The notes: generated by a model not told the origin, from the sequence alone. Counted from the stretch's first letter, positions 17,058 through 61,705 are shown. The stretch: 64,000 bases of DNA from an uncultured Gammaproteobacteria bacterium (GCA_965230935.1 OZ246400.1:848864-912863); one strand, 5' to 3'. A program made the numbers and translations.

Positions 17058-17444
17058 ATGAAAAAGGTCAAGACACAGACAAGTGTGGTGGCAGCAGTGG
17101 CAGTAGCATTGTTGGTAGTTTTTGGAGCTGGTTTAGCAGCGTATGCCGCAGGATTTTTGCCGCAAAGCACCTATGATCGTTTGCGTGAGCGTCGATTAGA
17201 ACAATATAGTCAAGAACATAAACAAAAACAGGAGTGGCTCAAGAAAAAGGCAGAAGCAAAGTATCAATTAGATCGTCGTCGTCGATTGTGGTACGGCCAA
17301 AAAGGTGGCGGTGGAAGCGCGGGATATGATACACCGGGGTACGACACTCCTGGTTACGAAACACCGGGGTACGAGACGCCAGGGTATGACACTCCAGGAT
17401 ATGATACACCCGGTTACGAAACACCGGGGTATCAGTTTCCCTAG
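17058..17444 (+). CDS. Small secreted or membrane-anchored protein with 8 C-terminal TPGY[DE] pentapeptide repeats
   Basis: N-terminal hydrophobic segment, then a coiled/basic stretch, then GYDTPGYDTPGYETPGYETPGYDTPGYDTPGYETPGYQFP. Confidence 0.6.
   Translation: MKKVKTQTSVVAAVAVALLVVFGAGLAAYAAGFLPQSTYDRLRERRLEQYSQEHKQKQEWLKKKAEAKYQLDRRRRLWYGQKGGGGSAGYDTPGYDTPGYETPGYETPGYDTPGYDTPGYETPGYQFP
17322..17441 (+). repeat. Imperfect 15-bp tandem DNA repeats encoding the TPGY[DE] pentapeptides
   Basis: Read directly from the sequence. Confidence 0.6.
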
Positions 17445-31778: not shown

Positions 31779-31786
31779 ATAATTTT

Positions 31787-31872
31787 GGTGCCGTGGGAGA
31801 GAATCGAACTCTCACACTGTTGCCAGTACTGGATTTTGAGTCCAGCGCGTCTACCAATTCCGCCACCACGGC
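31787..31872 (-). tRNA. tRNA-Leu (CAA)
   Basis: Acceptor stem GCCGTGG/CCACGGC, anticodon loop CTCAAAA, long variable arm, encoded CCA. Confidence 0.88.
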
Positions 31873-31924
31873 AGCTACCAACGTGTCCATTTTTCTGCTA
31901 TACTTAGGACACAGTGCCATTAGT

Positions 31925-32689
31925 ATGTCGCAAATCATTGCGGTTGTCAACCAGAAAGGAGGGGTCGGGAAAACCACCACTTCAGTGAACCTTGCTGCAG
32001 CATTTGCCCAGCAAGGCAAGTTTGTTTTGTTGGTCGATTTGGACCCTCAGGCAAATGCCACCAGTGGTGTGGGGATTAATCACCGTGAATTATCCCATGG
32101 GCTCTATGATGCACTGATTGGGCAAAAGCCATTTCATCAGATCATCCAAGATACTGCTCACGAAGGGTATCGAATTGCTCCGGCAACTGCAGGTCTATCA
32201 GGAGCAAACATCGAATTGGTCGAAGTTGAAGATCGAGAGTTTCAGTTGTACAAAGTATTACTCGAAGCGCGTCACGCGTATGATTACATTATTATTGATT
32301 GTCCGCCGTCACTTGGGCTATTGACGATTAATGGTTTGGTGGCAGCAGATACGGTCTTGATCCCGGTGCAAGCAGAGTATTATGCACTTGAAGGATTGGG
32401 TTCGCTGCTCCATACGATTAATTTAGTAAAAGAAAATCTTAAACCAGAATTAACGGTTGGTGGTGCAATCCTCACCATGTTTGATAGTCGTAATCGACTT
32501 TCACAAGATGTATTTGAGGAGCTGTACAAATATTTTCCTGACACTATTTTTCGCAGCATTATTCCGCGTACTGTGCGATTGGCTGAGGCACCAAGTTTTG
32601 GTAAAACCATTTTCCATTATGATCCAAGTAGTAAGGGTGCAAAAGCATATCGCCGGCTAGCCCGAGAAGTACTTGAGACGTTAGAGTAA
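31925..32689 (+). CDS. parA: Chromosome partitioning ATPase ParA/Soj
   Basis: Deviant Walker A motif NQKGGVGKTT. The ATG at 31925 is preferred, because the long ORF-track ORF overlaps the tRNA. Confidence 0.92.
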   Translation: MSQIIAVVNQKGGVGKTTTSVNLAAAFAQQGKFVLLVDLDPQANATSGVGINHRELSHGLYDALIGQKPFHQIIQDTAHEGYRIAPATAGLSGANIELVEVEDREFQLYKVLLEARHAYDYIIIDCPPSLGLLTINGLVAADTVLIPVQAEYYALEGLGSLLHTINLVKENLKPELTVGGAILTMFDSRNRLSQDVFEELYKYFPDTIFRSIIPRTVRLAEAPSFGKTIFHYDPSSKGAKAYRRLAREVLETLE

Positions 32690-32694
32690 CCTTT

Positions 32695-33567
32695 ATGGCA
32701 TTAGGACGAGGATTGGGATCACTGATCCCACAGAAACAAACACGAAATCGCGTGCATCGCAGCACGTCAGCTTCTGGTAAAGAAAAAAAGCCAATTGCAC
32801 TGCACGTTGCAGTTAAAGATATCATGATCAATCCTGAGCAGCCACGAAAGAATTTTACCCGTGAGGCCATGCAAGAGTTGATCGCTTCAATTAAAGAGCA
32901 TGGTATTTTGCAACCACTTTTGGTCAGTGAAAAAACAGATGGTACCTATGAGTTGATTGCTGGTGAGCGACGATTGCGCGCAGCACAGATGATCAATTTA
33001 GTAACCGTGCCAGCAGTATTACGCCAGACAAAAGATGATCAAGAAAAATTAGAACTCGCGCTTATTGAAAATATTCAACGTGCTGATTTGAATATTATTG
33101 AAGAAGCGTGTGCGTACGAGCGATTTGTTACTGAATTTGGATTGAGTCCTGAGCAAATTGGCGCACGAGTAGGGAAGGCACGCACCACGGTGACTAACAT
33201 CATGCGACTGTTAAGCTTACCTGATGAAGTTCAAAAGGCATTGATTGACGGAAAACTTTCTATGGGAAAGGCGCGTGCACTTGCTGGTATTACTGATCCC
33301 AAAGAACAGCTCAAGATGTTTGCTGCTATGATCGGTGAGGGAGTAACCGTGCGTGATGTAGAGCAGGCAGTCCAACGCAGCAAGCGTCGAACCGGCGGGA
33401 AAGGGTTGGTACGTCGCGATCCTAATGTAATGGATGCAGAAGACAAGTTGCGCAAGAGGCTTGGTACCAAAGTACGAATCACCAAGCGAGGGGAGAAGGG
33501 AAAAGTAGAAATTGAGTTTTACTCAGCAGAAGAGTATCGCACCGTACTTAGTTCTCTTCTGTCGTAA
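32695..33567 (+). CDS. parB: Chromosome partitioning protein ParB/Spo0J
   Basis: ParB box GERRLRAA and a helix-turn-helix. Confidence 0.92.
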   Translation: MALGRGLGSLIPQKQTRNRVHRSTSASGKEKKPIALHVAVKDIMINPEQPRKNFTREAMQELIASIKEHGILQPLLVSEKTDGTYELIAGERRLRAAQMINLVTVPAVLRQTKDDQEKLELALIENIQRADLNIIEEACAYERFVTEFGLSPEQIGARVGKARTTVTNIMRLLSLPDEVQKALIDGKLSMGKARALAGITDPKEQLKMFAAMIGEGVTVRDVEQAVQRSKRRTGGKGLVRRDPNVMDAEDKLRKRLGTKVRITKRGEKGKVEIEFYSAEEYRTVLSSLLS

Positions 33568-35032
33568 TCTTGTTGAGTAGCCATGACGCCAAATTTTGTT
33601 TGCTGTGTTGTTTGATACAACTGCGTGCATGGTTGGTCTTCGCAAATTTGATCCAGTCAGGACTTGGTCCCTTTCTTTTTTTATCAGTGGTGATGTCAAC
33701 CAAGTCCCCACTCTTGAGCGGTTGGCTCAGTGGTGTCATCGTGTCATTTACTCGCGCTCCAACGCAGGTATTACCAACATCGGTATGGATGGCATAGGCA
33801 AAATCGATTGGTGTCGCATTTTCCGGTAAATCAATTACGTCTCCTTTAGGTGTAAAGACAAAGATGCGATTTTGAAATACGTCGATCTTGAGATGCTCCA
33901 GATCTTGGAGTCGTTGCATAATATCTTTTTGTACTTCAGCTAGTTCTTTAATCCATTGCAATCGCTTTGAAGGAATTCGCGAACCTTGTTCATCATAATG
34001 CCAATGGGATGCAATACCGTACTCAGCATCATCATGCATTTCTTGTGTTCGGATTTGAAATTCTACAATCTCGCCATTGGTACAAAACACGGTTGTGTGA
34101 AGTGACTGATAGCCATTTGGCTTTGGCTGCGCAATGTAGTCTTTGATCCGTCCTTTGAGGGGGCGCCACACTTTATGAATAATTCCTAGAACGGCATAAC
34201 AGTCTGCGACGCTGGGAACGATAATTCGTAGAGCTACAAGATCGTAAATCTTATCAATATTACGATCATACTTCATCAGTTTTTTATACAGACTGTACAA
34301 TCGTTTTGTTCGCCCATGAATATCAAGTGTTGGAATAGACTCTTTTTCGAGCTCTTTTTTGATCTGCCGTTGAATTTGACGCAGATATTTTTCTTTCTCA
34401 TCAAATTGTTCGCTGATCAGGTTTTTTACCCATTTATATTCTTTCGGATATACATATTTAAATGATTCGTCCTCAAGACGTCCTTTCATATCACCCATCC
34501 CAAGACGGTTGGCAATCGGTGCATAGATCTCCAGGCTTTCTAGTGCAATGCGGTATTGCTTTTTTGGGGGGAGTGAGTCAAGTGTTTGAAGGTTATGTAA
34601 TCGGTCGGCAAATTTTACAATCATCACGCGCACATCATTGGCAACGGCCACAAACATTTTACGAAGGTTTTCAATGTACCGTTCTACACCACGATATTTG
34701 AGCTTTCCTAATTTGGTGATTCCTGAAACAATGGTCTCAATGTCTTTTCCAAAGTTCTTTTCAATATCCTCAAGCGTTACATTGGTATCTTCTGGAACAT
34801 CATGCAGCAATGCCGCCAAGATAATAGATTCATGCATTTCCATCTCAGCCAGCAATGTTGCCGCGGCGAGCGGATGGATAATATATGGTTCTCCGGATTT
34901 TCGACGTTGTCCTTTATGAGCATTATTCGCAAAGTCATAGCAGAGTTTGACCAATTCTAAATCCGCCCCTTTGTTTTTGGCGGAAATAGTCTTCAATAGT
35001 CGATCAATGGTATAAGCCTTTGGTTTTGCCAT
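33548..35032 (-). CDS. rel: Short RelA/SpoT homolog (HD hydrolase, synthetase and TGS domains; no C-terminal regulatory domains)
   Basis: HD motif HDVPEDT and a synthetase domain. It ends shortly after the TGS domain, at 494 aa. Confidence 0.9.
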   Translation of the reverse strand: MAKPKAYTIDRLLKTISAKNKGADLELVKLCYDFANNAHKGQRRKSGEPYIIHPLAAATLLAEMEMHESIILAALLHDVPEDTNVTLEDIEKNFGKDIETIVSGITKLGKLKYRGVERYIENLRKMFVAVANDVRVMIVKFADRLHNLQTLDSLPPKKQYRIALESLEIYAPIANRLGMGDMKGRLEDESFKYVYPKEYKWVKNLISEQFDEKEKYLRQIQRQIKKELEKESIPTLDIHGRTKRLYSLYKKLMKYDRNIDKIYDLVALRIIVPSVADCYAVLGIIHKVWRPLKGRIKDYIAQPKPNGYQSLHTTVFCTNGEIVEFQIRTQEMHDDAEYGIASHWHYDEQGSRIPSKRLQWIKELAEVQKDIMQRLQDLEHLKIDVFQNRIFVFTPKGDVIDLPENATPIDFAYAIHTDVGNTCVGARVNDTMTPLSQPLKSGDLVDITTDKKRKGPSPDWIKFAKTNHARSCIKQHSKQNLASWLLNKITTEEN

Positions 35033-35063
35033 ATGGATATCGCTATATTTAGCGTACTCTTGC

Positions 35064-35092
35064 TTGACAATTTTGTCTATATGTGCTATAGT
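35064..35092 (+). promoter_or_regulatory. Near-consensus sigma70-type promoter TTGACA-N17-TGcTATAGT
   Basis: Exact -35 hexamer, 17-bp spacer and an extended -10 element, read directly from the sequence. Confidence 0.55.
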
Positions 35093-35098
35093 CTGCGC

Positions 35099-35160
35099 AG
35101 GTGATGTTTAGGTATAACCTAAGCCAAGAGGGAAACCGCCAGACTGTTGGCGGTTTTTCT
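35099..35160 (+). ncRNA. Candidate small RNA of about 60 nt (promoter to terminator unit, no ORF)
   Basis: It starts about 7 nt after the -10 element. It contains the ttaggt-ata-acctaa hairpin and ends at a strong terminator. Confidence 0.35.
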
Positions 35161-35165
35161 TTTGT
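35134..35165 (+). terminator. Intrinsic terminator (8-bp stem aaccgcca/tggcggtt followed by TTTTTCTTTTGTTTT)
   Basis: Read directly from the sequence. Confidence 0.7.
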
Positions 35166-35281
35166 TTTAGGCAATTTGCTATTGACCAGAGTATGCAGGA
35201 ATGATACCCTATGCTCGTGGTTCGAGAGGGCCTGAGCATCACCATTGGCACGAGGTTACCTCATTCGAGCCACACAAAGTA

Positions 35282-35309
35282 TCCCAGCATTGCTGGGATT
35301 TTTTGTTTG
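35282..35309 (+). terminator. Intrinsic terminator (cccagca/tgctggg followed by TTTTTTGTTTG)
   Basis: Read directly from the sequence. It follows a 10-bp G.U-containing stem at about 35212-35271 that is more stable in the plus sense. Confidence 0.55.
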
Positions 35310-35310
35310 T

Positions 35311-35364
35311 AAATCAAAACGCCCCCTCCTGCGTTGTGCGCGAAATGCGCTGCAGAAGGGGACG
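35311..35364 (-). terminator. Intrinsic terminator of the high-GC lipoprotein gene (13-bp GC-rich stem followed by TTTTGATTT on the minus strand)
   Basis: Stem cgtccccttctgc/gcaggagggggcg containing two G.U pairs in the minus sense. Confidence 0.5.
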
Positions 35365-35421
35365 CCTCAAGTTGTTGGTGAGTGTGTGGATCAGTTGCGC
35401 TGGTGAGGCGCTACCGAAGCA

Positions 35422-36381
35422 TCACTCGCCAGGACAGGTGACGACCTGGTTGAACGATTCGCTCCCGCACGAGTAGTCGTCGCAAACCGTCAGGGTGATG
35501 GTGAACTCGCCGCACTGCACGAACTCGACCGTGGCGTAGGTCTCGGTGTCGTACTTGATCAGCGGGGACTGCACGTCGGCCTCGACCGCCGTGACCTCCC
35601 ACTGGTAGCTGTCCACCATGCCGAAGTGGTCGGTGCTGGAGCCGGACTTGGTCCCGTCGAGGCTGATGTGCTTGAGCGTGTCGATGGCGATCGACTGCGG
35701 CTCGTTGATCAGGTCGATGGGGTTCCAGCTCTGGCTGTACGCCATGGCCTTGATCCGGGCGGTGGGCGCCGGCGCCTGGGTGGCGTAGCCACCGAGGCTG
35801 AGCTCGTAGGTGTGGTTCTCGATCTCAGCCGCGTGCGCCGTGGCCTCGATCGTGAGCACGCCGTAGCGGTACTCAGTGAAATCCACGTCCAGCTCGAGCT
35901 CCTCGTGCGTCTTGGGCTCGAACACGGTCGGGATGGCGCTCTTGTGGCCGGCCTCGATGGTCTGGAACCGGTTCTTGGTCGCCACATCGAAGTCCGCCTC
36001 GCCGTCGCCGTACACCACCACGTCGATCACCTCGACGTCCACGCTGTACTCGCACCCGTTGTGCACCTGGATCATGCGCTGAGTCGCGCCGCCCAGGTAC
36101 GTATCGGGGAACTCGTACGTCGCAGGGATGGTGATGCACTTGGACAGCGCCGCCGCCTCCACGTCCTGCTCGTTGTCGCTCGTCTCGTCGGACCCAGCCA
36201 GCTCGGCCGGCGGCCCCTCGGGCTCACCGTGCTCGCCGAAGCCGCAGTCGCCCTTGTAGATCTCGGCGACCTCCCAGCCGCGCTCGATCGTGGGGTCGGA
36301 CTCGGCCATGCAGCCGATCTGCGGGGTGGCAGCGATGAAAAGGACGAAGATGAGCGACGCGTTGTTGATAACCCGCTTCAT
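35422..36381 (-). CDS. High-GC secreted lipoprotein of unknown function (319 aa, Asp/Glu-rich, three Cys pairs)
   Basis: Signal peptide with a lipobox (FIAATPQIGC) and a GGAGGC RBS. About 65% GC, in sharp contrast to its flanks. The antisense ORF at 35626-36552 is compositional noise. Confidence 0.7.
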   Translation of the reverse strand: MKRVINNASLIFVLFIAATPQIGCMAESDPTIERGWEVAEIYKGDCGFGEHGEPEGPPAELAGSDETSDNEQDVEAAALSKCITIPATYEFPDTYLGGATQRMIQVHNGCEYSVDVEVIDVVVYGDGEADFDVATKNRFQTIEAGHKSAIPTVFEPKTHEELELDVDFTEYRYGVLTIEATAHAAEIENHTYELSLGGYATQAPAPTARIKAMAYSQSWNPIDLINEPQSIAIDTLKHISLDGTKSGSSTDHFGMVDSYQWEVTAVEADVQSPLIKYDTETYATVEFVQCGEFTITLTVCDDYSCGSESFNQVVTCPGE

Positions 36382-36554
36382 GAGAATGCCTCCGTTGCTT
36401 ACTGTCTCTTACTGTTGCGCTCAAACGCCGGCACCTGCCGACTCGTACTTGGGGTAAACCCGTTCCGTAGGGAATACATTTACTGTTTTTGGAAAATGCC
36501 CTCCTTACGAAGCGTTTTCTTAAACAACGTAAAATCAACTCGAAATAACTGAGA

Positions 36555-36583
36555 AGTATAGCACAAAAAAGCAGTTTTGTCAA
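36555..36583 (-). promoter_or_regulatory. Near-consensus promoter TTGACA-N17-TGcTATACT on the minus strand, about 170 nt upstream of the lipoprotein gene
   Basis: Reverse complement of 36555-36583, read directly from the sequence. Confidence 0.5.
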
Positions 36584-36631
36584 GGTTTGAAGGCTTAAAT
36601 AAGCTAATTTTGCTAAAAGTAGCAATAATAA

Positions 36632-36660
36632 AAATTGCCCAAATTGGGCAATTTTTACTT
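36632..36660. terminator. Bidirectional intrinsic terminator downstream of topA (aaattgccc-aaatt-gggcaattt between A and T tracts)
   Basis: Read directly from the sequence. Confidence 0.65.
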
Positions 36661-44980: not shown

Positions 44981-45006
44981 CTTTTGTTCTTTTCATGTGC
45001 TTTTTG

Positions 45007-45097
45007 CGCGAGTTGTGTAGAGGAGGGGTCAGTAGATTGGCTCAAATATTCAAAGGAGGCCTGCAATCTACGACAGCAGTTCTCTGCACAACTCGCG
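45007..45097 (+). ncRNA. 91-nt structured leader element: 16-bp outer stem (one G.U) enclosing an 8-bp inner stem, with the SD-like AAGGAGG exposed in the apical region
   Basis: cgcgagttgtgtagag pairs with ctctgcacaactcgcg; gtagattg pairs with caatctac. Read directly from the sequence. Confidence 0.4.
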
Positions 45098-45144
45098 TAA
45101 GAAGTCTGGTGCTTGGTCTGAAACCCAAACGTTGGAGGAAGAGG

Positions 45145-45303
45145 ATGCCTTTGAACAACCCATTGATGGTCACCTGCGGGAACCGTCGCTGTCGCGCGCA
45201 CGTGGCGCTGCTGTACATGCGCGTGCCGTGTACCTCGGTCCGATTGTATCGCTCATACCTATGGGAGATACTGAGGATGTTATTTACAAATCGTGTAGAA
45301 TAA
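45145..45303 (+). CDS. Possible 52-aa Cys-rich small ORF in the leader
   Basis: Good RBS (GGAGGAAGAGG then ATG). Translation is MPLNNPLMVTCGNRRCRAH...; there is no other support. Confidence 0.2.
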   Translation: MPLNNPLMVTCGNRRCRAHVALLYMRVPCTSVRLYRSYLWEILRMLFTNRVE

Positions 45304-45481
45304 TCAGGTATACCTGTACGAATCAGCTGTCTATCTCTGAGGTGCAACGTCGCATCTTGAGCTCTAAGCAATTGAGCGTGCAGGTATGCACACATCGATG
45401 ACCTTGGAGGGTCCGATGATTTTTTCCGTTTTGACCACTTTGGCCACTATCAGCAACCCCAACGACTCCGAGGAGGGAGCC

Positions 45482-47170
45482 ATGAGCGACGACAAGAAGA
45501 GCAAGAAGAAGTCGCCGCCGGCCCCGGCGGAGGCGAACGAGGGCGATGCGAAGCGCAAGTACGAGCCGGGTGACGGGCCCTACGAGCGCGTTCACGCGGA
45601 CGTCATCGGCTCGATGGAGGCGCAGTACTGCTGCAATCCTTTCGACCAGGCCGACGCGTGTGACTTCACCGGCGGTCCGGACGAGCTGACGTTGCCGAGC
45701 TTCAAGGCGCTCAACAGCAGCATCAGCCGGGTGCACGGGCTCAAGCGCGGGTTCTTCCCGGGTGACGAGGCCATCTACGCCCGTTGCCCGCAACACGCGC
45801 ACGAGGTCCGGTACGGCAACCGGACGATCCGCGAGACCTTCAAGTACACGGCCGATCGTTGGGCCGGTAAGGGTCGGACCCCGAGCACCTGGATGGCGCA
45901 GCCGCTGCCGCACCCCGAGGCCTTCAATAAGCACCCGTACTGCACTCCGTGCAGCGGGAGCTGCGGCGGCCTGTGGCTCGAGACCAACCTGTACGCCCCG
46001 CAGCCCGAGGCGCTCGTGGAGCAGCTGGAGGACGTCGAGTCCACCGGCGCGCTCACGCGGGAGCACTTCGGCGCGCATCTGCTGTGCAAGCGGTGCGTGG
46101 ACGCTGACGCGGTCGAGCAGGGGACCCTCGTCGAGTTCGCCACGATCGTGGCGGCCTTGGGTTGGGAGCCGCGGGAGTACGTGCCCGAGGCGCTCGATCT
46201 CGAGGGGTTCGAGGGGACGCAGGTCACGGTTGAGCACCCGCAGCTCGAGGTCTCGCAGAAGCTCCAGGCCGTGGTTCGTTCGACTCACACGTCGTTCGGG
46301 GTGTTCGCCCGCATCGTGGATGACGGACGTGACGCCCTGTTGCGTTGGGAGGACGTCAACGCGGACTACAACGTGGGTGACGTGATCGACATCTGGATCG
46401 CGCGGCTGCACTGCAAGACGGGTGAGGACGGCGAGTCGGATCGCCTCTTCATCTGGGCGGCGGACACCAAGCCCGTGCTCTTGGCGGACGTCAAGTCCGG
46501 CCAGGAGTTCGATGGCGAGGTGGCCTCCCACGCGCCCTTCGGCATGTTCGTGCGCATCGGTCCGGCTCTGCCGGCTGGTGTCGTGCACAAGAGCGTGCTG
46601 AGCGGCCGTTCGCGCGACGACTTCCCGGTGAACACGTTCGTCCGGGTCATGGTCAGCGACGTGGACCACAAGCGTTCTCGACTCAACCTCGTGTTGGTCG
46701 AAGACGTGGAGGGAAGCAGAGCGGTCCAGGACTGGAAGGCGCAGGCGCCGGGAGCGGAGGACGTGGTCTCGGTCGACCAGGAGGTGGGGAAAGGTAAGAC
46801 CCCCACCAAGGTCGGCCTGACCATGGTTCCGCCCAAGTCCGAGCAGCCCAAGTCCAAGAAGTCCCGGTTCGTCCCCAGGCGCCGCACGACGTACGTGGTG
46901 GGTCCCAAGCCCGCCGCTGCGCAGCAGCGTGAGGAGGTCGAGGCGCAGCTCGCCGATGCCGCCAAGGTGTTCGGTGAGGCCGAGCACATCCAGAAGACCG
47001 GTACCTACGGGGCCGGATCCAAGGACAGCATCGGTCGCTCGCTCGAGGGGCGCAAGGCCGGTAAGGCCAAGCGCTCGAAAGCCGAGGAGATCAAGGATCG
47101 GACGCTCAAGGTGTTCGGCGACCTCTTCAACGTCCGCCAGGGCAAGGGCAAGAAGGGCAAGGGCAACTGA
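45482..47170 (+). CDS. High-GC 562-aa protein: N-terminal Cys/His-rich region, three S1/OB-like RNA-binding domains and a Lys/Arg-rich tail
   Basis: GAGGAGGG RBS 6 nt upstream of the ATG. One canonical S1 motif (GQEFDGEVASHAPFGMFVRIGPALPAGVVHKSVLS) and two degenerate ones. About 66% GC with GC3-rich codons. The antisense 622-aa ORF is noise. Confidence 0.7.
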   Translation: MSDDKKSKKKSPPAPAEANEGDAKRKYEPGDGPYERVHADVIGSMEAQYCCNPFDQADACDFTGGPDELTLPSFKALNSSISRVHGLKRGFFPGDEAIYARCPQHAHEVRYGNRTIRETFKYTADRWAGKGRTPSTWMAQPLPHPEAFNKHPYCTPCSGSCGGLWLETNLYAPQPEALVEQLEDVESTGALTREHFGAHLLCKRCVDADAVEQGTLVEFATIVAALGWEPREYVPEALDLEGFEGTQVTVEHPQLEVSQKLQAVVRSTHTSFGVFARIVDDGRDALLRWEDVNADYNVGDVIDIWIARLHCKTGEDGESDRLFIWAADTKPVLLADVKSGQEFDGEVASHAPFGMFVRIGPALPAGVVHKSVLSGRSRDDFPVNTFVRVMVSDVDHKRSRLNLVLVEDVEGSRAVQDWKAQAPGAEDVVSVDQEVGKGKTPTKVGLTMVPPKSEQPKSKKSRFVPRRRTTYVVGPKPAAAQQREEVEAQLADAAKVFGEAEHIQKTGTYGAGSKDSIGRSLEGRKAGKAKRSKAEEIKDRTLKVFGDLFNVRQGKGKKGKGN

Positions 47171-47258
47171 GACCTGGTAGAGGCCAGGCACTACACGACA
47201 ACAACAACTGGTTTTGGGGCGGCGCGGACAACGGAGTAACTTCCCGCGTTTGCGTCGC

Positions 47259-47308
47259 CCCTGTCCAATAGTGCAGCTCAGTATACTGAGAGATACTATT
47301 GGGCAGGG
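47259..47308 (+). promoter_or_regulatory. 50-bp near-perfect palindrome (14-bp arms flanking the self-complementary CTCAGTATACTGAG), immediately upstream of the RBS of the next gene
   Basis: Read directly from the sequence. Operator-like. Confidence 0.35.
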
Positions 47309-47326
47309 AAGACAAGGAGGGCCATC

Positions 47327-48001
47327 TTGAAGAGTTTTTCCTCTTTTCGTCTGGTTCGGCGAAGAGGGTTTCGATGGTCAGTGCTGCTTGTCATGCTGGT
47401 CATCTTCATCTTGATTTTTGTCCCGTTGGAGGTGGCACCTATGACGACTACGCCGGAACATGTGGTGAGCTGTGATGCGCCCAGCAAGGTCGTCGTCAGT
47501 TTCACTCAGGAGCAGATGCGCCAACAGGTGAGCCGGGTGTTTCCGATCAATTTGCCTGAGGTGGTGCGCATGGTGGACGTGGTGCTGCACGATCCATCGA
47601 TCACCTTGAACCAGATCAGCGCCAGCACAGTCACACTGGAGCTCGGCGCAACGTTGGTGGTGAGCACGCCATTGCCTGGTGTTCCGGAAGGGCGGTATCG
47701 TGCAACGATCAGCGCCACCGGATCGTTGGTGTACGGCAATGTGCACAAGGCCGTGTACATCAGTGAGTTTGCCATCACGCAGCTCACGCTCAGCGGACGT
47801 CTTGCGCATGTTCAGGACTCGACGCGCTTGCGCGCGTATGTCCAGGAGGTGTTGCAACAGCAGGTGCTGAGTAATGTGCCGCTGTACCGGACAAGTGAGG
47901 CTCAACTCGCCACGATCGCACCAAATGCGGCTGTGGTACAGGCTGCACTCACCCCCAGTGGGGAGGTGCACATTGGTCTGAGCTGGGATGAGCACCGCTG
48001 A
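47327..48001 (+). CDS. DUF1439 (YceB-like) family protein with signal peptide; TTG start
   Basis: AAGGAGGG RBS 7 nt upstream of the TTG. Basic-hydrophobic N-terminus. Resemblance to the DUF1439 pattern. About 58-60% GC. Confidence 0.55.
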   Translation: MKSFSSFRLVRRRGFRWSVLLVMLVIFILIFVPLEVAPMTTTPEHVVSCDAPSKVVVSFTQEQMRQQVSRVFPINLPEVVRMVDVVLHDPSITLNQISASTVTLELGATLVVSTPLPGVPEGRYRATISATGSLVYGNVHKAVYISEFAITQLTLSGRLAHVQDSTRLRAYVQEVLQQQVLSNVPLYRTSEAQLATIAPNAAVVQAALTPSGEVHIGLSWDEHR

Positions 48002-50683: not shown

Positions 50684-51364
50684 TTATGCTTGATTGGCAA
50701 GTGTTAGTGACTGCCAGTTTTCAGTGGTGATTTGGGTAATTTCATGGCATTGATCAAGGGAATATTGACCAATTCGTGTGCGAGTAAGTGCACTGGCATA
50801 GGCGCCGCAGCCAAGTGTTTGACCGATGTCATGGATAAGCGTCCGGATGTAGGTTCCAGGACCACATACAATACGCAATTGTGCTTGTTGATTTTGGGTA
50901 TCAACGTGGAGCAGTTCAATAGATGAGATGCTAATGGTTGTTGGTTGGCGGGCAATAGTTTTTCCAGCACGCGCCAATTCATACAGTTTTTTTCCTTGAA
51001 TTTTTTTGGCACTATACATTGGTGGTATTTGTGAGATGTTGCCAATAAATTTGGGGAGAACTTGTTGAAGAGTCTCTTGGGTGATTGTTGCAGGATGAGG
51101 ATGTGGTGTAATGATGCCGTCACTATCTTGAGTGTCGCTGACGGCACCAAATTGTGCAGTGGCAATATATTCTTTTTCAAGCGCTTTAAATTGATCAATA
51201 GATTTGGTGCTTTCGCGAGTAATGGCGACAATAAGTACCCCGGTAGCAAAAGGGTCAAGTGTGCCAGCGTGGCCGATTTTTTTCTCACCAGTAATACTGC
51301 GTAATTTAGCGACAATATCGTGAGAAGTCCATTCTTTTGGTTTATTGATGCACACAAATGGCAT
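50684..51364 (-). CDS. truB: tRNA pseudouridine-55 synthase TruB
   Basis: GHAGTLDPFATGVL motif. Confidence 0.92.
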   Translation of the reverse strand: MPFVCINKPKEWTSHDIVAKLRSITGEKKIGHAGTLDPFATGVLIVAITRESTKSIDQFKALEKEYIATAQFGAVSDTQDSDGIITPHPHPATITQETLQQVLPKFIGNISQIPPMYSAKKIQGKKLYELARAGKTIARQPTTISISSIELLHVDTQNQQAQLRIVCGPGTYIRTLIHDIGQTLGCGAYASALTRTRIGQYSLDQCHEITQITTENWQSLTLANQA

Positions 51365-51513
51365 ATACTGAGTTTTAGGATTGATAATATGTTCAAACTA
51401 TACTAGTATCATCAATACTACTCAAGACAAGTCATGACGGATGGTGCGTGTCCTATATTTAGGGTAGGCATGGTCCGTTATACAGCCACGGGTTGGTTGG
51501 AGGAGTACCTCAG

Positions 51514-52416
51514 ATGATAATTGAAGTCGGCCCAGACGGGGGGAGCGTAAAGCATCCTCCTCCTGCTGGCAGCAGCGAAGACCGGCGGCGTCGTGGCCGT
51601 AGCAGAGGTCGACGCGGTGGTCGGCGAGGAAAAGGAACAGGAGGTTCAAAACTCGATTCGTCAAATAGGGCCTCGGGTGGTGCAGACCCTCCTAGGCTAG
51701 TCGTAAGGGGGAAAGAACCACCATCGGATAGTCCTCCCGACGAGTCAGTGTTACTGGCCGCACAGTTGATGGAGCTTGTAGAGGGCTCTTTAGACTCGAG
51801 CGGGTTGCCAGGCTTGCGGGAATTTGATCCTGAGTTGAGCTCAGAGGATCGCGAGGAGTTGCGTCAACGGTTTCGAGAGGTCGTGGCCAAGTTGTGCGCG
51901 CACGTGGATCAGTTGCAGCTTCACCAGCTGGCGCTCCAGCCAGATGTCGGTGGACCGCTTCGCGAGGTGCGTCTATGCTTGCTCGGCTGGATGGATCTTG
52001 CGAGTGCTCGACGCAAAGCGGTGTATGCGGCGCTTGATCGCGCAATACTCGCCTTGATCGCGCAAGAGGAGAGCGACCCAAAGGAGTCACTTGGACGTAC
52101 CCAGCGTCGGCGGCGTGAGCGACGTTCACGGATTGCACGTCAAGTGCGACAGCTTCGCTTGCGCCTGGAATCTATCCATCCCGGCAAGGATGGTATGAGT
52201 TTTCAGGAGTACGATCTTGTGCGTCCGGCCCTTGAAGGGCAAATTCGTCGATTGGCTGAAGTTCGAGATTTGAGACGCAACAGACGGGCACAGACCCTCT
52301 TTGCTCATCTGCTCGAGACTCTGCCTATGTGGCGCGGGCTTCCAAGAGCAGAACGACGAGTAGTGCTCTATGAGCTCAGACGGCTTGAGAGGCTGTTCAC
52401 GGACTCAGACTCGTAG
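51514..52416 (+). CDS. High-GC hypothetical protein (300 aa; Arg/Gly-rich N-terminus, Arg/Leu-rich helical remainder)
   Basis: GGAGGAG RBS 7 nt upstream of the ATG at 51514. About 60% GC; the antisense ORF is noise. No recognisable domain. Confidence 0.55.
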   Translation: MIIEVGPDGGSVKHPPPAGSSEDRRRRGRSRGRRGGRRGKGTGGSKLDSSNRASGGADPPRLVVRGKEPPSDSPPDESVLLAAQLMELVEGSLDSSGLPGLREFDPELSSEDREELRQRFREVVAKLCAHVDQLQLHQLALQPDVGGPLREVRLCLLGWMDLASARRKAVYAALDRAILALIAQEESDPKESLGRTQRRRRERRSRIARQVRQLRLRLESIHPGKDGMSFQEYDLVRPALEGQIRRLAEVRDLRRNRRAQTLFAHLLETLPMWRGLPRAERRVVLYELRRLERLFTDSDS

Positions 52417-52443
52417 TCCATACCATCCAACAAACAACACGAT

Positions 52444-52471
52444 GCAGCGTCAACGGCGCTGCTTTGGTTTT
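52444..52471 (+). terminator. Hairpin terminator (gcagcg-tcaacgg-cgctgc followed by TTTGGTTTT) ending island 3
   Basis: Read directly from the sequence. Confidence 0.45.
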
Positions 52472-52491
52472 GGGCTGATATGTCCTGAATC

Positions 52492-52519
52492 TTGCATTTT
52501 TTCTCGATTTTGCTATACT
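52492..52519 (+). promoter_or_regulatory. Promoter TTGCAT-N16-TGcTATACT for infB
   Basis: Read directly from the sequence. Confidence 0.5.
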
Positions 52520-52537
52520 CCCAGCACATTTCATCCT

Positions 52538-54580
52538 ATGAACGTCACTGAACTTGCACGGCGCATGCGCATGAACACCGCAACGCTCCTGGAAATTCTC
52601 CCGGAGTTTGGTTTTGATATTGGGAAACGCGCGATTAAAGTAGATGATCGGATTGCGCAGAAGATTTTGCGGCAAAGTAAATACATTAAAGAGGCGCTTG
52701 AGAAGCGTAAAGAAGAAGAGGCAAAAAAGCGCAAAGAGTTGGAACGTCAGATGCGTCAGGAAAAAGGGGAGAGTGTTGTGATTCCTGATCGTATTACCGT
52801 ACGCGAATTTGCTGATCGGCTTGGGTTGCCGGTAACAACAATTATTGCGGAGTTGATGAAGAATGGTATTTTGGCAAACTTAAATGAAAATATTGATCGG
52901 GATACCGCAACTGTGTTAGCCGAAGACCTTGGTTTTATTGTACAGCAGCAAGATCAAGATGCTCAGGAAGTTGAAAGTGAGCAGGTGGTTGATTCTCTTG
53001 AGACGGCACTTGGTCAACAAGATAGCGAGGCATTTGTTGCTCGTCCACCGGTTGTGGTGGTGATGGGACATGTAGATCATGGAAAAACAAGCTTGCTTGA
53101 TGCGGTGCGTAAGACCAATGTAATTGCCGGTGAATCCGGTGGAATTACCCAACACATTGGTGCCTATCAGGTTGATCACACCATGAAAGAGGGTGGTGAA
53201 TCTCGTAAAGTGACTTTTGTTGATACTCCAGGACATGAGGCGTTTACGGTTATGCGATCACGTGGTGCGCGAGTTGCTGATATTGCGATTTTAGTGGTGG
53301 CTGCTGATGATGGGGTCATGCCACAGACTGTTGAAGCAATTGATATTATCAATGCGGCAAAGTTGCCCATGGTTGTGGCAATCAACAAGATGGACAAAGA
53401 AGGTGCAAATCCTGAAAAAGTAAAAACAGAACTTTCACAGCGTAATATTGTTCCAGAAGAGTGGGGAGGAAAAGTACCGATGGTGCAGATTTCTGCCAAA
53501 GAAGGGACAAACATCGACGCCTTGCTTGAAACGGTATTGCTGATGGCTGATGTTCACGAAGAGGCAATTGTAGCAGATCCTGACCATTCTGCTGTTGGAA
53601 CCGTGGTTGAGTCCCATGTTGATAAAGGTGAGGGGCCAGTTGCTACGATTTTGGTCCAAGCTGGCACCCTTCGTCGTGGTGATGTTTTGGCAGTGAATGG
53701 ACAGATCTATGGAACGGTTCGGGCAATGAAAGATTTTCGTGCAGATGATGTTAAAGAGGCTGGTCCGTCAATGCCGGTCAAGATTTTGGGATTCAAAGCT
53801 GCTCCGTCAGTTGGTGATATTTTAGATGTGGCTGCAGCAAAAGATGCCACAAAGATTAAGAAAACCAAGACAACTAGTAAGCCAGCTACCGTGGTTGCGC
53901 CGGTATCCTCATCTGATGAAGATGAAGAAGACGAAGGCAAGAAAAAGATGTTGTACGTAGTGCTGAAAGCCGATGTGCTTGGTTCGCTTGAGGCAATTTT
54001 GGCGTCAATTGAAAAGTTTGTGCATGATGAAGTCGGGGTGAAGGTTGTGGGTAAAGGTCTTGGCAATATCACCGAGGCTGAGATTGATCGCGCAACATCC
54101 ACTGGTGCGCAAGTATTTGCGTTTCATGTAGCGGTTCCACCATCAGTAAAAGACTTGGCAAAAGATAAAGAAGTGGTGGTGCAGCGTTTTGAAGTGATTT
54201 ATAAGTTGCTTGAGTATATTGAAGCAGAGTTGCAAAAGCTTTTGCCGTCAGAGCGCATTGTGCATGAATTGGGTCATGCAACCGTGAAGGCGATTTTCCG
54301 TAAAGATAAAAGTGCTATGACGGTTGGATCGTTGTTGGAGGATGGTAAGTTTACCTTGGAGGCGCGCGTGCGCATCAAGCGCGGTGGTGAGGTGATTGGA
54401 GATGGTAAGATTGAGAGTTTGCAGATTGGTGCCTCAAAAGAAAAAGAGATTCCCGCAGGAACTGAGTTTGGTATGCGGGTAGTAAGCAAGACAGGAATTG
54501 AAGAGGGTGATATACTGGAAGCCTACACCGAAGAGGTGAAGCAGCGAAAAATTGAATTTAAACACGTTACTCAAGAGTAA
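52538..54580 (+). CDS. infB: Translation initiation factor IF-2
   Basis: IF2-N domain (MNVTELARRMRM), G-domain ([12 protein letters not shown]) and a C-terminal beta-barrel. The start is set at 52538 rather than the long ORF-track start. Confidence 0.93.
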   Translation: MNVTELARRMRMNTATLLEILPEFGFDIGKRAIKVDDRIAQKILRQSKYIKEALEKRKEEEAKKRKELERQMRQEKGESVVIPDRITVREFADRLGLPVTTIIAELMKNGILANLNENIDRDTATVLAEDLGFIVQQQDQDAQEVESEQVVDSLETALGQQDSEAFVARPPVVVVMGHVDHGKTSLLDAVRKTNVIAGESGGITQHIGAYQVDHTMKEGGESRKVTFVDTPGHEAFTVMRSRGARVADIAILVVAADDGVMPQTVEAIDIINAAKLPMVVAINKMDKEGANPEKVKTELSQRNIVPEEWGGKVPMVQISAKEGTNIDALLETVLLMADVHEEAIVADPDHSAVGTVVESHVDKGEGPVATILVQAGTLRRGDVLAVNGQIYGTVRAMKDFRADDVKEAGPSMPVKILGFKAAPSVGDILDVAAAKDATKIKKTKTTSKPATVVAPVSSSDEDEEDEGKKKMLYVVLKADVLGSLEAILASIEKFVHDEVGVKVVGKGLGNITEAEIDRATSTGAQVFAFHVAVPPSVKDLAKDKEVVVQRFEVIYKLLEYIEAELQKLLPSERIVHELGHATVKAIFRKDKSAMTVGSLLEDGKFTLEARVRIKRGGEVIGDGKIESLQIGASKEKEIPAGTEFGMRVVSKTGIEEGDILEAYTEEVKQRKIEFKHVTQE

Positions 54581-60217: not shown

Positions 60218-61705
60218 ATGAAATATTTTTATACCAGATTTCTTGTAGGGGTTTGTTGTGCGCTCATGATGGTTTTTGCTATCCCATCAGCGCATGCGCA
60301 AGGTGTGGGGTTTGTGCCGAGTAGTGGCGTGTGGTTTTCAGAAGAAGTATTTTTTGAAGGTGACACCGTAAAACTCTACACCGTGGTGGTGAATAATACT
60401 TACAATATCTTGTCTGGTGTTCTTGGGTTTTATGATAATGATTCATTAATTGGAGAAGTGGTGTTTTCAAATATTACCTTTGAATCAGCAAAACAAGTTT
60501 CAATTAATTGGACACCAACCACTGGAGATCATAACTTGAGTGCGCGTTTTATCACGATTACTGGAGAAAAAATTGGCGGAGGAAGTGAAACACTTGATGA
60601 AGCAGAATTTAATGGAGGAAATACCGTGGTGAACACTGCCCAATTTGTTGACTTAGATACTGACGGTGACAATGTTGGAAATGAAGTTGATGATGATGAC
60701 GACAATGATGGACTGAGCGATGACGAAGAGGCACAAGTTGGTTCTGATCCGCTGGTAGGGGATACCGACGGCGATGGGATTAGTGATCAGAAAGAAGTTC
60801 GCAATGGCACCAGTCCAATTAAGAGCGACACTGACGGGGATGGTGTAGATGATAGTAGTGATATATTTCCAACTGATGGGAGTGAGTCAGCTGATGTTGA
60901 TGGCGATGGTATAGGGGACAATGCAGACATTGATGATGACAATGACGGACTATCTGATAGTGACGAACGCAATTTGGGTTCTGATCCACTGGTAAGCGAC
61001 ACTGATGGCGATGGGTTGAGTGATAAGCAAGAAGCCGATGCCGGATCAAGTCCAATTAAGAGCGACACCGACGGCGATGGGCTTTCTGATGCGCAAGAGG
61101 TGGAGTTTGGAACTGACGCTACCAATGCCGACACTGATGGCGATGGGCTTTCTGACGCACAAGAAAAAGAAAAAGAAACTGATGCTACCAACGCGGACAC
61201 TGATGGTGATGGATTGTCTGATGGCGATGAGGTCAGCGTTGGGACAAGCCCGTTGTTTCAAGATTCAGACGGCGATGGAGTCAACGATGATACTGATCCG
61301 TTCCCTATGAATGATCAGGAGTCACAAGACACTGATGGCGATGGTGTAGGGGACAATGCCGATGAAGATGATGATAATGATGGGCTCTCTGATGAGCGCG
61401 AAGTCGAGCTCGGGTTAAATCCACTGTCGGCCGATTCTGATGAGGATGGCTTGGATGATAATCATGAAATTGATGTGCTGGGTACTGATCCAACATTAGC
61501 TGACTCTGATGGTGATGGTGCTGTGGATGGTGATGAAGTGCAAGCTGGTACTGATCCGTCATCAGCAGATTCAACTCCTGAAGTCGTGCGCAAAGAAGAA
61601 GGCGGCATGTCTGTACGTTCTATTTTGTTGAGCTTGGCTGTGCTCTCGACATTAGGTCTGTTGGTGTTTGGTACTCTATATGTTCGCAAAAGACACGAGT
61701 TATAG
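60218..61705 (+). CDS. Secreted, C-terminally membrane-anchored surface protein with about 15 thrombospondin type-3-like calcium-binding repeats
   Basis: Signal peptide, a roughly 120-aa N-terminal domain, DTDGDG[LI]SD repeats and a C-terminal TM plus RKRHEL. Confidence 0.75.
   Translation: MKYFYTRFLVGVCCALMMVFAIPSAHAQGVGFVPSSGVWFSEEVFFEGDTVKLYTVVVNNTYNILSGVLGFYDNDSLIGEVVFSNITFESAKQVSINWTPTTGDHNLSARFITITGEKIGGGSETLDEAEFNGGNTVVNTAQFVDLDTDGDNVGNEVDDDDDNDGLSDDEEAQVGSDPLVGDTDGDGISDQKEVRNGTSPIKSDTDGDGVDDSSDIFPTDGSESADVDGDGIGDNADIDDDNDGLSDSDERNLGSDPLVSDTDGDGLSDKQEADAGSSPIKSDTDGDGLSDAQEVEFGTDATNADTDGDGLSDAQEKEKETDATNADTDGDGLSDGDEVSVGTSPLFQDSDGDGVNDDTDPFPMNDQESQDTDGDGVGDNADEDDDNDGLSDEREVELGLNPLSADSDEDGLDDNHEIDVLGTDPTLADSDGDGAVDGDEVQAGTDPSSADSTPEVVRKEEGGMSVRSILLSLAVLSTLGLLVFGTLYVRKRHEL
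60640..61560 (+). repeat. Tandem TSP3-type (DxDxDGxxDxxE) coding repeats
   Basis: Read directly from the translated sequence. Confidence 0.6.

Follow-up and report, generated by a model that had tools for sequence, protein, structure and literature searches.

A candidate pair of co-evolving small RNAs encoded between rel and topA in a putative Magasanikbacteria genome

What two consecutive promoter-to-terminator units are doing in the gap between rel and topA is the question raised by positions 35064 to 35310 of the 64,000-nucleotide stretch of DNA analyzed here (the window), in which two adjacent predicted small noncoding RNA genes lie on the + strand. The best explanation of their sequence features is that RNA1 and RNA2 are two separate, chromosomally fixed small-RNA genes whose transcripts would form a dedicated interacting pair. 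The first-pass annotation had seen both units and proposed a candidate sRNA locus; it missed the conserved promoter that belongs to RNA2 and the co-evolving complementarity between RNA1 and RNA2. The identical sequence is also present in an independent Logan assembly and on a metagenome contig of 87 kb in ENA, and placement through Rel relatives points to a member of Candidatus Magasanikbacteria (Patescibacteria/CPR) as the host.

RNA1 is preceded by a promoter at 35064-35092 (+ strand) composed of TTGACA (35064-35069), a 17-nt spacer, and the extended -10 TGcTATAGT (35084-35092), exactly as first annotated; it matches 11 of 12 consensus positions, has the TG, and ranks first among the sites of the 2.5-kb scan. 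Promoter geometry suggests a start near 35099, and the consensus promoter and terminator together delimit a predicted transcript of ~70 nt (35099-35168) with a free 5' tail, hairpin 1 (35106-35124; GUUUAGGU-AUA-ACCUAAGC), and an intrinsic terminator (35125-35168) with an A-tract, a stem at 35125-35164, and the U-tail UUUUUCUUUU, which together correspond to inverted repeat I1. The fold has an energy of -32.9 kcal/mol (z = -6.05; 0 of 200 shuffles as good), in agreement with the earlier description of a structured short transcript beginning about 7 nt after the promoter and containing two hairpins and a strong terminator. The terminator hairpin is absent from the list of a simple terminator scan, yet its fold is unambiguous, and every locus has a strong RNA1 terminator with a U-run after it. 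The homologues share the layout of RNA1, and a counterpart of hairpin 1 is predicted in 10 of 16. We note that an inner AGUC-GUAA-GAC element with a GNRA tetraloop is kept in the RNA1 terminators of loci L011, L115, L119, L104, L118, and L114, among which the outer stems differ between lineages, and that the window has CCAG-ACUG-UUGG in its place.

RNA2 has its own promoter at 35182-35210 (+ strand), consisting of the -35 TTGACC (35182-35187), a 17-nt spacer, and a weak, TG-extended -10 (TACCCT, 35205-35210), which a simple scan missed because only three of its six positions match the consensus. The predicted ~93-nt transcript (35217-35309), with start and end set by the consensus promoter and terminator, would contain a rod hairpin, an A-rich linker, and a terminator. 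The rod (35217-35273) is formed by P1 (35217-35226 with 35264-35273), P1b (GAGG/CCUC), P2' (GCCU/AGGU), and an apical loop. P1 is the 10-bp stem GUGGUUCGAG/UUCGAGCCAC, including the G.U pairs that had led the first-pass annotation to a plus-sense structure, and the segment 35171-35310 indeed folds at -50.6 kcal/mol (z = -3.67) in the + sense versus -43.5 kcal/mol (z = -2.39) in the - sense. The second terminator, also recognized at first, occupies 35281-35309, with the stem AUCCCAGC-AUU-GCUGGGAU (35281-35299) followed by a U-run; it is listed by the terminator scan and corresponds to inverted repeat I2.

Fifteen further Magasanikbacteria contigs carry both units, in the same order, in their rel-topA gap, giving 16 distinct loci from independent assemblies, with Rel proteins 62 to 79% identical to that of the window; judged from sequence, an arrangement that recurs in this way is far beyond chance. 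A profile search with the intergenic DNA against 80 Rel-anchored loci identified L011 (E = 4e-8) and L021 at the equivalent position upstream of rel, and L022 and L023 were added by reading sequences. A metagenome scan with a degenerate RNA2-core pattern yielded L089, L091, L097, L104, and two partial contigs, the remaining matches being coding false positives, and contigs with close Rel relatives gave L109, L110, L111, L114, L115, L118, and L119. Promoters are kept in register in all 16 loci: TTGACA-N17-TAnnnT, mostly TG-extended, 6 to 7 nt ahead of the RNA1 start, and TTGnnn-N17/18-TAnnnT 6 to 7 nt before the first G of P1 in RNA2, with -10 boxes that in most loci are better than TACCCT. Between the RNA1 terminator and the RNA2 start lie 27 to 121 nt of unconserved sequence, a variability in keeping with two independent units.

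The pair is absent from this site in 30 of 34 Magasanikbacteria-like species representatives fetched through Rel, and such relatives have only a terminator or an unrelated gene in the gap; a looser motif scan of all 120 loci found no extra homologues or displaced copies. The pair is missing from many Magasanikbacteria and is therefore dispensable. Loci with more similar Rel proteins also have more similar RNAs (Spearman 0.51), and the clades are in agreement, which together indicate that the pair is old, vertically inherited, and repeatedly lost. A scan of viral contigs gave a single match, a coding false positive, and no copy of the pair. At L119 only, a third promoter-to-terminator unit (TTGACA-17-AATAGT) lies ~60 to 170 nt downstream of RNA2; its RNA starts with the hairpin UUACCUAU-AAU-AGGUAA, containing a seed-like AGGUAA and an anti-seed-like UUACC, and the unit is possibly a degenerate paralogue of the pair. 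Upstream of rel in L018 there is a long near-perfect inverted repeat with arms of ~60 nt (aggcaggcacttcagtgcctg...gtcccgtagggacgacag / ctgtcgtccctacgggac...) that is unrelated to the RNA pair.

The setting is constant as well. In every readable homologous locus the order is rel leftward, RNA1 and RNA2 rightward, and topA leftward, and the gene after RNA2 is convergent wherever the flank can be read, being either topA or an inserted gene (35422-36381, - strand, in the window). The window rel (33548-35032, - strand) codes for a 494-residue Rel with HD, RelA_SpoT, and TGS domains that aligns to positions 2 to 452 of a 687-position RelA/SpoT model and is without the C-terminal regulatory region, a short form common to all Magasanikbacteria relatives retrieved. 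Beyond rel are parB and then parA; on the other side of the RNA pair a 1.3-kb high-GC insert is followed by topA and folC. Because the folC-topA-rel-parBA synteny is general in the group, the constant head-to-head placement with rel may reflect mere ancestry. From its upstream sequences rel appears leaderless or nearly so, with TTGCCA-17-TACATT-7-ATG in L021, TTGCAA-17-TACATT-7-ATG in L016, and, on the - strand of the window, TTGTCA (35070-35065), 17 nt, TATAGC (35047-35042), 9 nt, and the ATG at 35032. The rel -35 overlaps that of RNA1 on the opposite strand in both the window and L011, and the two promoters may therefore compete.

Several other features of the region are noted in passing. 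The high-GC island (35311-36650) is a single - strand gene (35422-36381; 319 aa; GC3 = 0.94) whose product has a lipoprotein-type signal at its start (MKRVINNASLIFVLFIAATPQIGC) and a weak PKD-like C-terminus; in a genome of 44% GC it looks like a horizontal acquisition. Public annotation of the source contig instead calls a + strand shadow ORF at 35626-36552, with codon-position GC of 0.85/0.42/0.59. The RNA2-topA gap holds differing extra DNA in several relatives: it is GC-rich in L110 (after RNA2) and L119 (243-1886), includes an unannotated 466-aa ORF in L115 (734-2134), and includes a 157-aa membrane-like ORF in L097 (3950-4423). By tblastx, none of the insertions at this site in other loci resembles the window island, and the gap may be a recurrent insertion hot spot. 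Higher-GC segments are also present at window positions 45000-48000 (0.58 to 0.67) and 51000-53000 (0.50), over a background of 0.43 to 0.46, and there are imperfect tandem repeats, probably coding, at 17320-17431 (period 15/30/45) and 61063-61212 (period 66). The longest parA ORF (298 aa; GTG at 31793; 31793-32689) overlaps a tRNA-Leu gene (31786-31872) on the opposite strand; the source annotation has a 254-aa form, and the true parA start is probably downstream of the tRNA.

Neither unit resembles a gene for a protein or a known RNA. The first-pass annotation had found no ORF, which is correct in that no frame is conserved among homologues; two mechanical ORFs do cross the region, one of 44 aa (35101-35235) and the other of 33 aa (35211-35312). 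Homologues break them with stops, such as AGGUAAUAAUAAGG in L021, and L021 and L023 have UAA UAA in RNA1 and UGA in RNA2, so that small ORFs, including one from a leaderless GUG at the RNA2 start, are rejected as not conserved, and with them any toxin protein of a type I toxin-antitoxin system. At the gathering threshold Rfam 15 reports only two tRNAs in the window and only tRNAs in eight homologous loci. With 34900-35500 scanned at E<=10 the best match is Phe_leader (24.2 bits versus a threshold of 55), and the permissive matches to rli52, ctRNA_p42d, and VqmR in that segment are all terminator driven. ARAGORN finds only tRNA-Met and tRNA-Leu, both elsewhere, and no motifs of split tmRNA, SRP, 6S, or tRNA are present. 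The literature yielded nothing on sRNAs of Magasanikbacteria or Patescibacteria, and an RNA pair of this kind is absent both from Rfam and from the literature that could be searched.

Other regulatory identities fare no better. A 5' leader, riboswitch, or attenuator is rejected because no co-oriented gene lies downstream and the next genes are convergent. A cis-antisense pair is incompatible with two nonoverlapping genes on the same (+) strand, and the RNA1:RNA2 complementarity is 10 to 15 bp with G.U pairs and occasional mismatches. A crRNA-tracrRNA or guide-RNA array is not indicated, the only repeats in the window being the two short coding-type tandem repeats mentioned above, and no guide-RNA effector is nearby among rel, parAB, topA, and folC. 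Shine-Dalgarno mimicry, with AGGUGAU of RNA1 as the SD and the RNA2 loop as anti-SD, is contradicted by the L021 and L104 clades, which have GGUAAUA/UAUUACC. What the predicted transcripts do share with generic trans-acting sRNAs is an independent promoter, an intrinsic terminator, an intergenic location, and the absence of a conserved ORF; the reading as an sRNA locus is supported by 16 loci with register kept, compensatory changes in both RNAs, the lack of a conserved ORF, and the lack of a co-oriented gene. RNA1 additionally has a conserved accessible seed with a complementary partner RNA, namely, RNA2, and RNA2 pairs with that sRNA seed as a sponge does, its loop and stem covarying with nt 1 to 15 of RNA1.

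RNA1 begins with 12 to 15 nt of complementarity to the apical portion of the RNA2 hairpin. In the window, the seed a' (35100-35113; GGUGAUGUUUAGGU) faces the anti-seed a (35230-35243; GCCUGAGCAUCACC) with a duplex energy of -24.5 kcal/mol, and a repeat finder independently reported 35100-35112 as the inverted complement of 35231-35243 (inverted repeat I3). Nucleotides 1 to 7 of the seed form a single-stranded toehold, and the remainder, its 3' half, is sequestered in hairpin 1; in the anti-seed, the 3' half (CAUCACC) is in the loop and the 5' half (GCCUGAG) is in P2'. By partition function, nt 1 to 7 of RNA1 have an unpaired probability of ~1 and RNA2 AUCACCAUU is largely unpaired. RNA1 nt 1 to 15 pair with RNA2 nt ~13 to 30 in every locus (-12.8 to -26.2 kcal/mol), and after opening costs the net duplex energy is favorable throughout (-0.4 to -11.8 kcal/mol), the weakest value, -0.4 kcal/mol, belonging to L091, which has a mismatch in the helix. 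Cognate combinations average -20.3 kcal/mol compared with -14.1 for noncognate ones, no other RNA2 pairs better than the cognate one in 11 of 16 loci, and comparison with shuffled RNA1 seeds gives z values of -1.9 to -6.6.

The two sides change together across the lineages. The window seed GGUGAUGUUUAGG is matched by the anti-seed CCUGAGCAUCACC, GGUGAUGCUCAG by CUGAGUAUCACC in L109, GUGAUGUUAAGG by CCUUAACAUCAC in L011, GUGAUACAAA by UUUGUAUCAC in L097, GGUAAUAAUAAGG by CCUUAUUAUUACC in L021, and GGUAAUAUAAAGG by CCUUUAUAUUACC in L104; L022 (GUGAUGUUAAAGG and CCUUUAGCAUCAC) has a matched 1-nt insertion on both sides, and L119 (GGUAAUAUGU(G)AGG and CCUACAUAUUACC) has a bulged G in RNA1. In a manually registered alignment (artificial anchors, gaps written as N), in which each block was checked as a substring of the real sequence and the registration of which MAFFT left unchanged, the 15-pair intermolecular helix is 90% paired with five pairs changed on both sides. 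A second, shorter helix, joining GCCNN in the RNA1 linker to NNGGC in the RNA2 loop, is suggested and is represented in the window by b' (GCCAA, 35123-35127) and b (UUGGC, 35245-35249), and elsewhere by GCCUAA/UUAGGC in L114, GCCAAA/UUUGGC in L115, and GCUGA/UCGGC in L021. Its five pairs are 88% paired versus 9 to 40% when slid, one pair appears as AU, UA, GC, and GU, and only 5 to 6 of 500 shuffles reach the observed values; since related sequences can beat shuffles, this contact is held tentative and is suggestive only. Jointly the two helices have 25 cells changed on both sides and a covariation score of 0.298, compared with at most 0.078 when the partners are slid, and 0 of 500 shuffles reach it, a test to be read with the caveat that the loci are phylogenetically related and that related sequences can surpass shuffles without any structure.

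Covariation within RNA2 supports the rod, which is the minimum-energy fold in 14 of 15 distinct RNA2 hairpins (z = -1.1 to -4.7) and has, from base to tip, a P1 of 8 to 11 bp (often with one bulge), a short P1b, P2' (CCUU/RAGG), and an apical loop of ~14 to 16 nt, (G)CAUCACC-NNN-GGCA. The five pairs of outer P1 are 98.7% paired with four of them changed on both sides, as are three P1b pairs (e.g., GAGG/CCUC, CAAG/CUUG, and AAGA/UCUU), and GGU/ACC in L022 is compensated as GGC/GCC in L089. Plain MAFFT plus RNAalifold on the 15 hairpins recovered only six core pairs because the hypervariable RNA2 stems are misaligned. An alternative hairpin, P3, in which RAGG pairs with a downstream CCUY, fits the data as well as the rod does (91.7% paired; pair types GC 5, AU 4, and GU 3), and P3 and P1b/P2' are mutually exclusive. 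RNA1 would invade the CCU(U) side of P2', and the rod is therefore most simply read as the structure of free RNA2, with P3 forming after RNA1 has bound.

We think it on balance probable, from these sequence comparisons, that the locus codes for a regulator RNA and its anti-regulator, dedicated to each other and inherited vertically, which work through the pairing of a 5' tail with a loop and through strand invasion. RNA1, made from its near-consensus promoter, would meet the CAUCACC of the RNA2 apical loop with its single-stranded 5' end (5'-GGUGAUG), a 7-nt toehold, and invasion would then spread into hairpin 1 of RNA1 and P2' of RNA2 to give an intermolecular helix of 12 to 15 bp, to which the short GCCAA/UUGGC contact may add. 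A toehold followed by strand invasion is the classic scheme for fast antisense pairing. Invasion would release the RAGG strand of RNA2, and since the freed RAGG can re-pair with the downstream CCUY, RNA1 binding probably switches the RNA2 fold. The RNA1:RNA2 duplex is a likely RNase III substrate, so that mutual titration and probably also duplex cleavage would set the level or fold of one partner; as an sRNA and its dedicated sponge or decoy, each RNA could set the free level or conformation of the other.

Whether a third party takes part bears on how this arrangement is read. Targets predicted for the RNA1 seed in the window and in every locus amount to noise, with RNA2 the single site common to all loci, and no mRNA target site is conserved between loci in the flanking 3 to 14 kb of each locus and the 64-kb window. 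Every conserved nucleotide of RNA1 or RNA2 sits in its own stems or in the RNA1:RNA2 helices. With all conserved bases explained and no third-party site found, the pair looks like a closed system.

These same observations lend something to the alternative that the active species is a two-piece functional RNA, either a heterodimer or an RNA2 protein decoy opened by RNA1 (such as a scaffold for an RNP or a rod that sequesters protein), rather than a regulator and a sponge acting on mRNAs: all conserved bases serve mutual binding, the DNA searched offers no mRNA target, both genes have good promoters, the RNA2 rod keeps its shape with internal loops at fixed places, and the GNRA (GUAA) loop of the RNA1 terminator hairpin is retained in several lineages. 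We nevertheless consider it unlikely, given that most relatives lack the pair, that no candidate partner protein is linked to the locus, and that hardly any unpaired nucleotides that could form a catalytic core or specific protein site are conserved. In a specific form, judged rather unlikely, RNA1 and RNA2 would be subunits of one heterodimeric functional RNA specific to this CPR branch, as an RNA-only switch or an openable protein-sequestering rod, possibly wired into growth and stringent control given the fixed head-to-head position with the seemingly leaderless rel. The co-evolving interface would then be an assembly interface rather than a regulatory seed.

An RNA-only toxin-antitoxin or addiction-like module, comparable to type VIII systems, in which one free RNA is harmful and its neighbor neutralizes it by pairing, seems improbable. 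The single copy always at the same chromosomal site, vertical inheritance with rel, and the lack of a copy in the viral contigs scanned all argue against it, and there is no toxin ORF or anything in either RNA to suggest toxic activity. The layout is nonetheless that of trans-encoded type I pairs minus the ORF, with adjacent, independently promoted, and mutually dedicated genes and 12 to 15 nt of co-evolving complementarity, and the patchy distribution among relatives is also in keeping with such a module.

It is highly doubtful that the region is a single read-through transcript of ~210 nt with 35100-35112 and 35231-35243 paired in cis and the internal "terminator" merely structural. Tandem units on one strand, inverted repeat arms (I3) 118 nt apart, and the weak -10 box of the window RNA2 would be compatible with read-through; it is opposed by the in-register promoter before RNA2 and the strong RNA1 terminator with its U-run in all loci and by the variable, unconserved spacer, and the cis pairing would cross P1 of RNA2, which itself covaries. 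Scarcely credible is the reading that these are not RNA genes but a divergent rel promoter region plus bidirectional terminators of flanking genes, or a decayed gene remnant: the RNA1 and rel -35 overlap and an RNA2 terminator abutting the topA 3' end in relatives would suit it, but it cannot explain compensatory changes between segments ~120 nt apart or within RNA2, relatives that lack the pair have one terminator in this gap, there is no conserved coding signal, and the remnant scenario, already raised in the first-pass annotation, is excluded by relatives that carry the same two units or nothing at the site.

If the pair is a regulator and its anti-regulator, as we favor, its retention across lineages with Rel proteins only 62% identical would indicate that riboregulation persists in reduced CPR genomes, which are roughly 1 Mb in size. 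In the searchable literature no trans-acting sRNA or RNA-RNA pair is described for Patescibacteria/CPR. The approximately eight natural seed/anti-seed variants are effectively orthogonal pairs and offer a testable model of toehold-mediated pairing and RNA-RNA co-evolution, and the pair can serve as an annotation marker for an otherwise empty intergenic region.

Among known systems, the proposed pairing is closest in geometry to RNA-IN/RNA-OUT of IS10/Tn10, for which Kittle and colleagues in 1989 are said to have described the 5' end of a linear partner attacking the loop of a ~70-nt hairpin RNA, with pairing then reportedly proceeding down one side of the stem. The likeness is a 5' end entering a hairpin loop followed by stem invasion, which here is predicted. 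RNA-OUT is a 69-nt antisense RNA with 35 nt of complementarity (PMC5006887). It is cis-encoded on the opposite strand with perfect complementarity, targets the transposase mRNA, and resides in a mobile element, whereas the window pair is on the same strand and nonoverlapping, has 12 to 15 nt of complementarity maintained by co-evolution, occupies a fixed chromosomal site, and has no protein-coding partner. In CopA-CopT and RNAI-RNAII, cis-antisense plasmid RNAs that control replication, loop-loop kissing provides a fast exposed-loop contact that is followed by helix propagation and rearrangement of both hairpins. Exposed-loop first contact, propagation, and hairpin rearrangement are predicted for the window pair too, but with tail-to-loop contact, in trans, and on the chromosome.

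The sRNA sponges and anti-sRNAs that have been reviewed, including AgvB-GcvB, SroC-GcvB, and RosA-RoxS (PMC8383071; bioRxiv 10.1101/2021.04.25.441314), likewise involve a trans-encoded RNA that pairs with the seed of another sRNA and controls its free amount. Known sponges usually derive from loci elsewhere (prophages, spacers, or the 3' ends of mRNAs), and the sRNAs on which they act, mostly with the help of Hfq, have defined mRNA regulons, whereas RNA1 and RNA2 are neighboring genes that form a co-evolving closed pair in a CPR host. Adjacent, separately promoted genes with short RNA complementarity are also typical of zorO-orzO and ralR-ralA, that of zorO-orzO being ~18 nt. Both zorO-orzO (PMC3919570) and ralR-ralA, which has 16 nt of complementarity (PMC4041452), are type I toxin-antitoxin loci with trans-encoded antitoxins. 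These require a toxin ORF, and RNA1 and RNA2 are without a conserved reading frame. The window pair lacks the defining features of the RNA-IN/OUT and trans-encoded type I families and departs from the known sponges in the ways described, and it is a candidate RNA family pair that would be new and the first of its type proposed for CPR.
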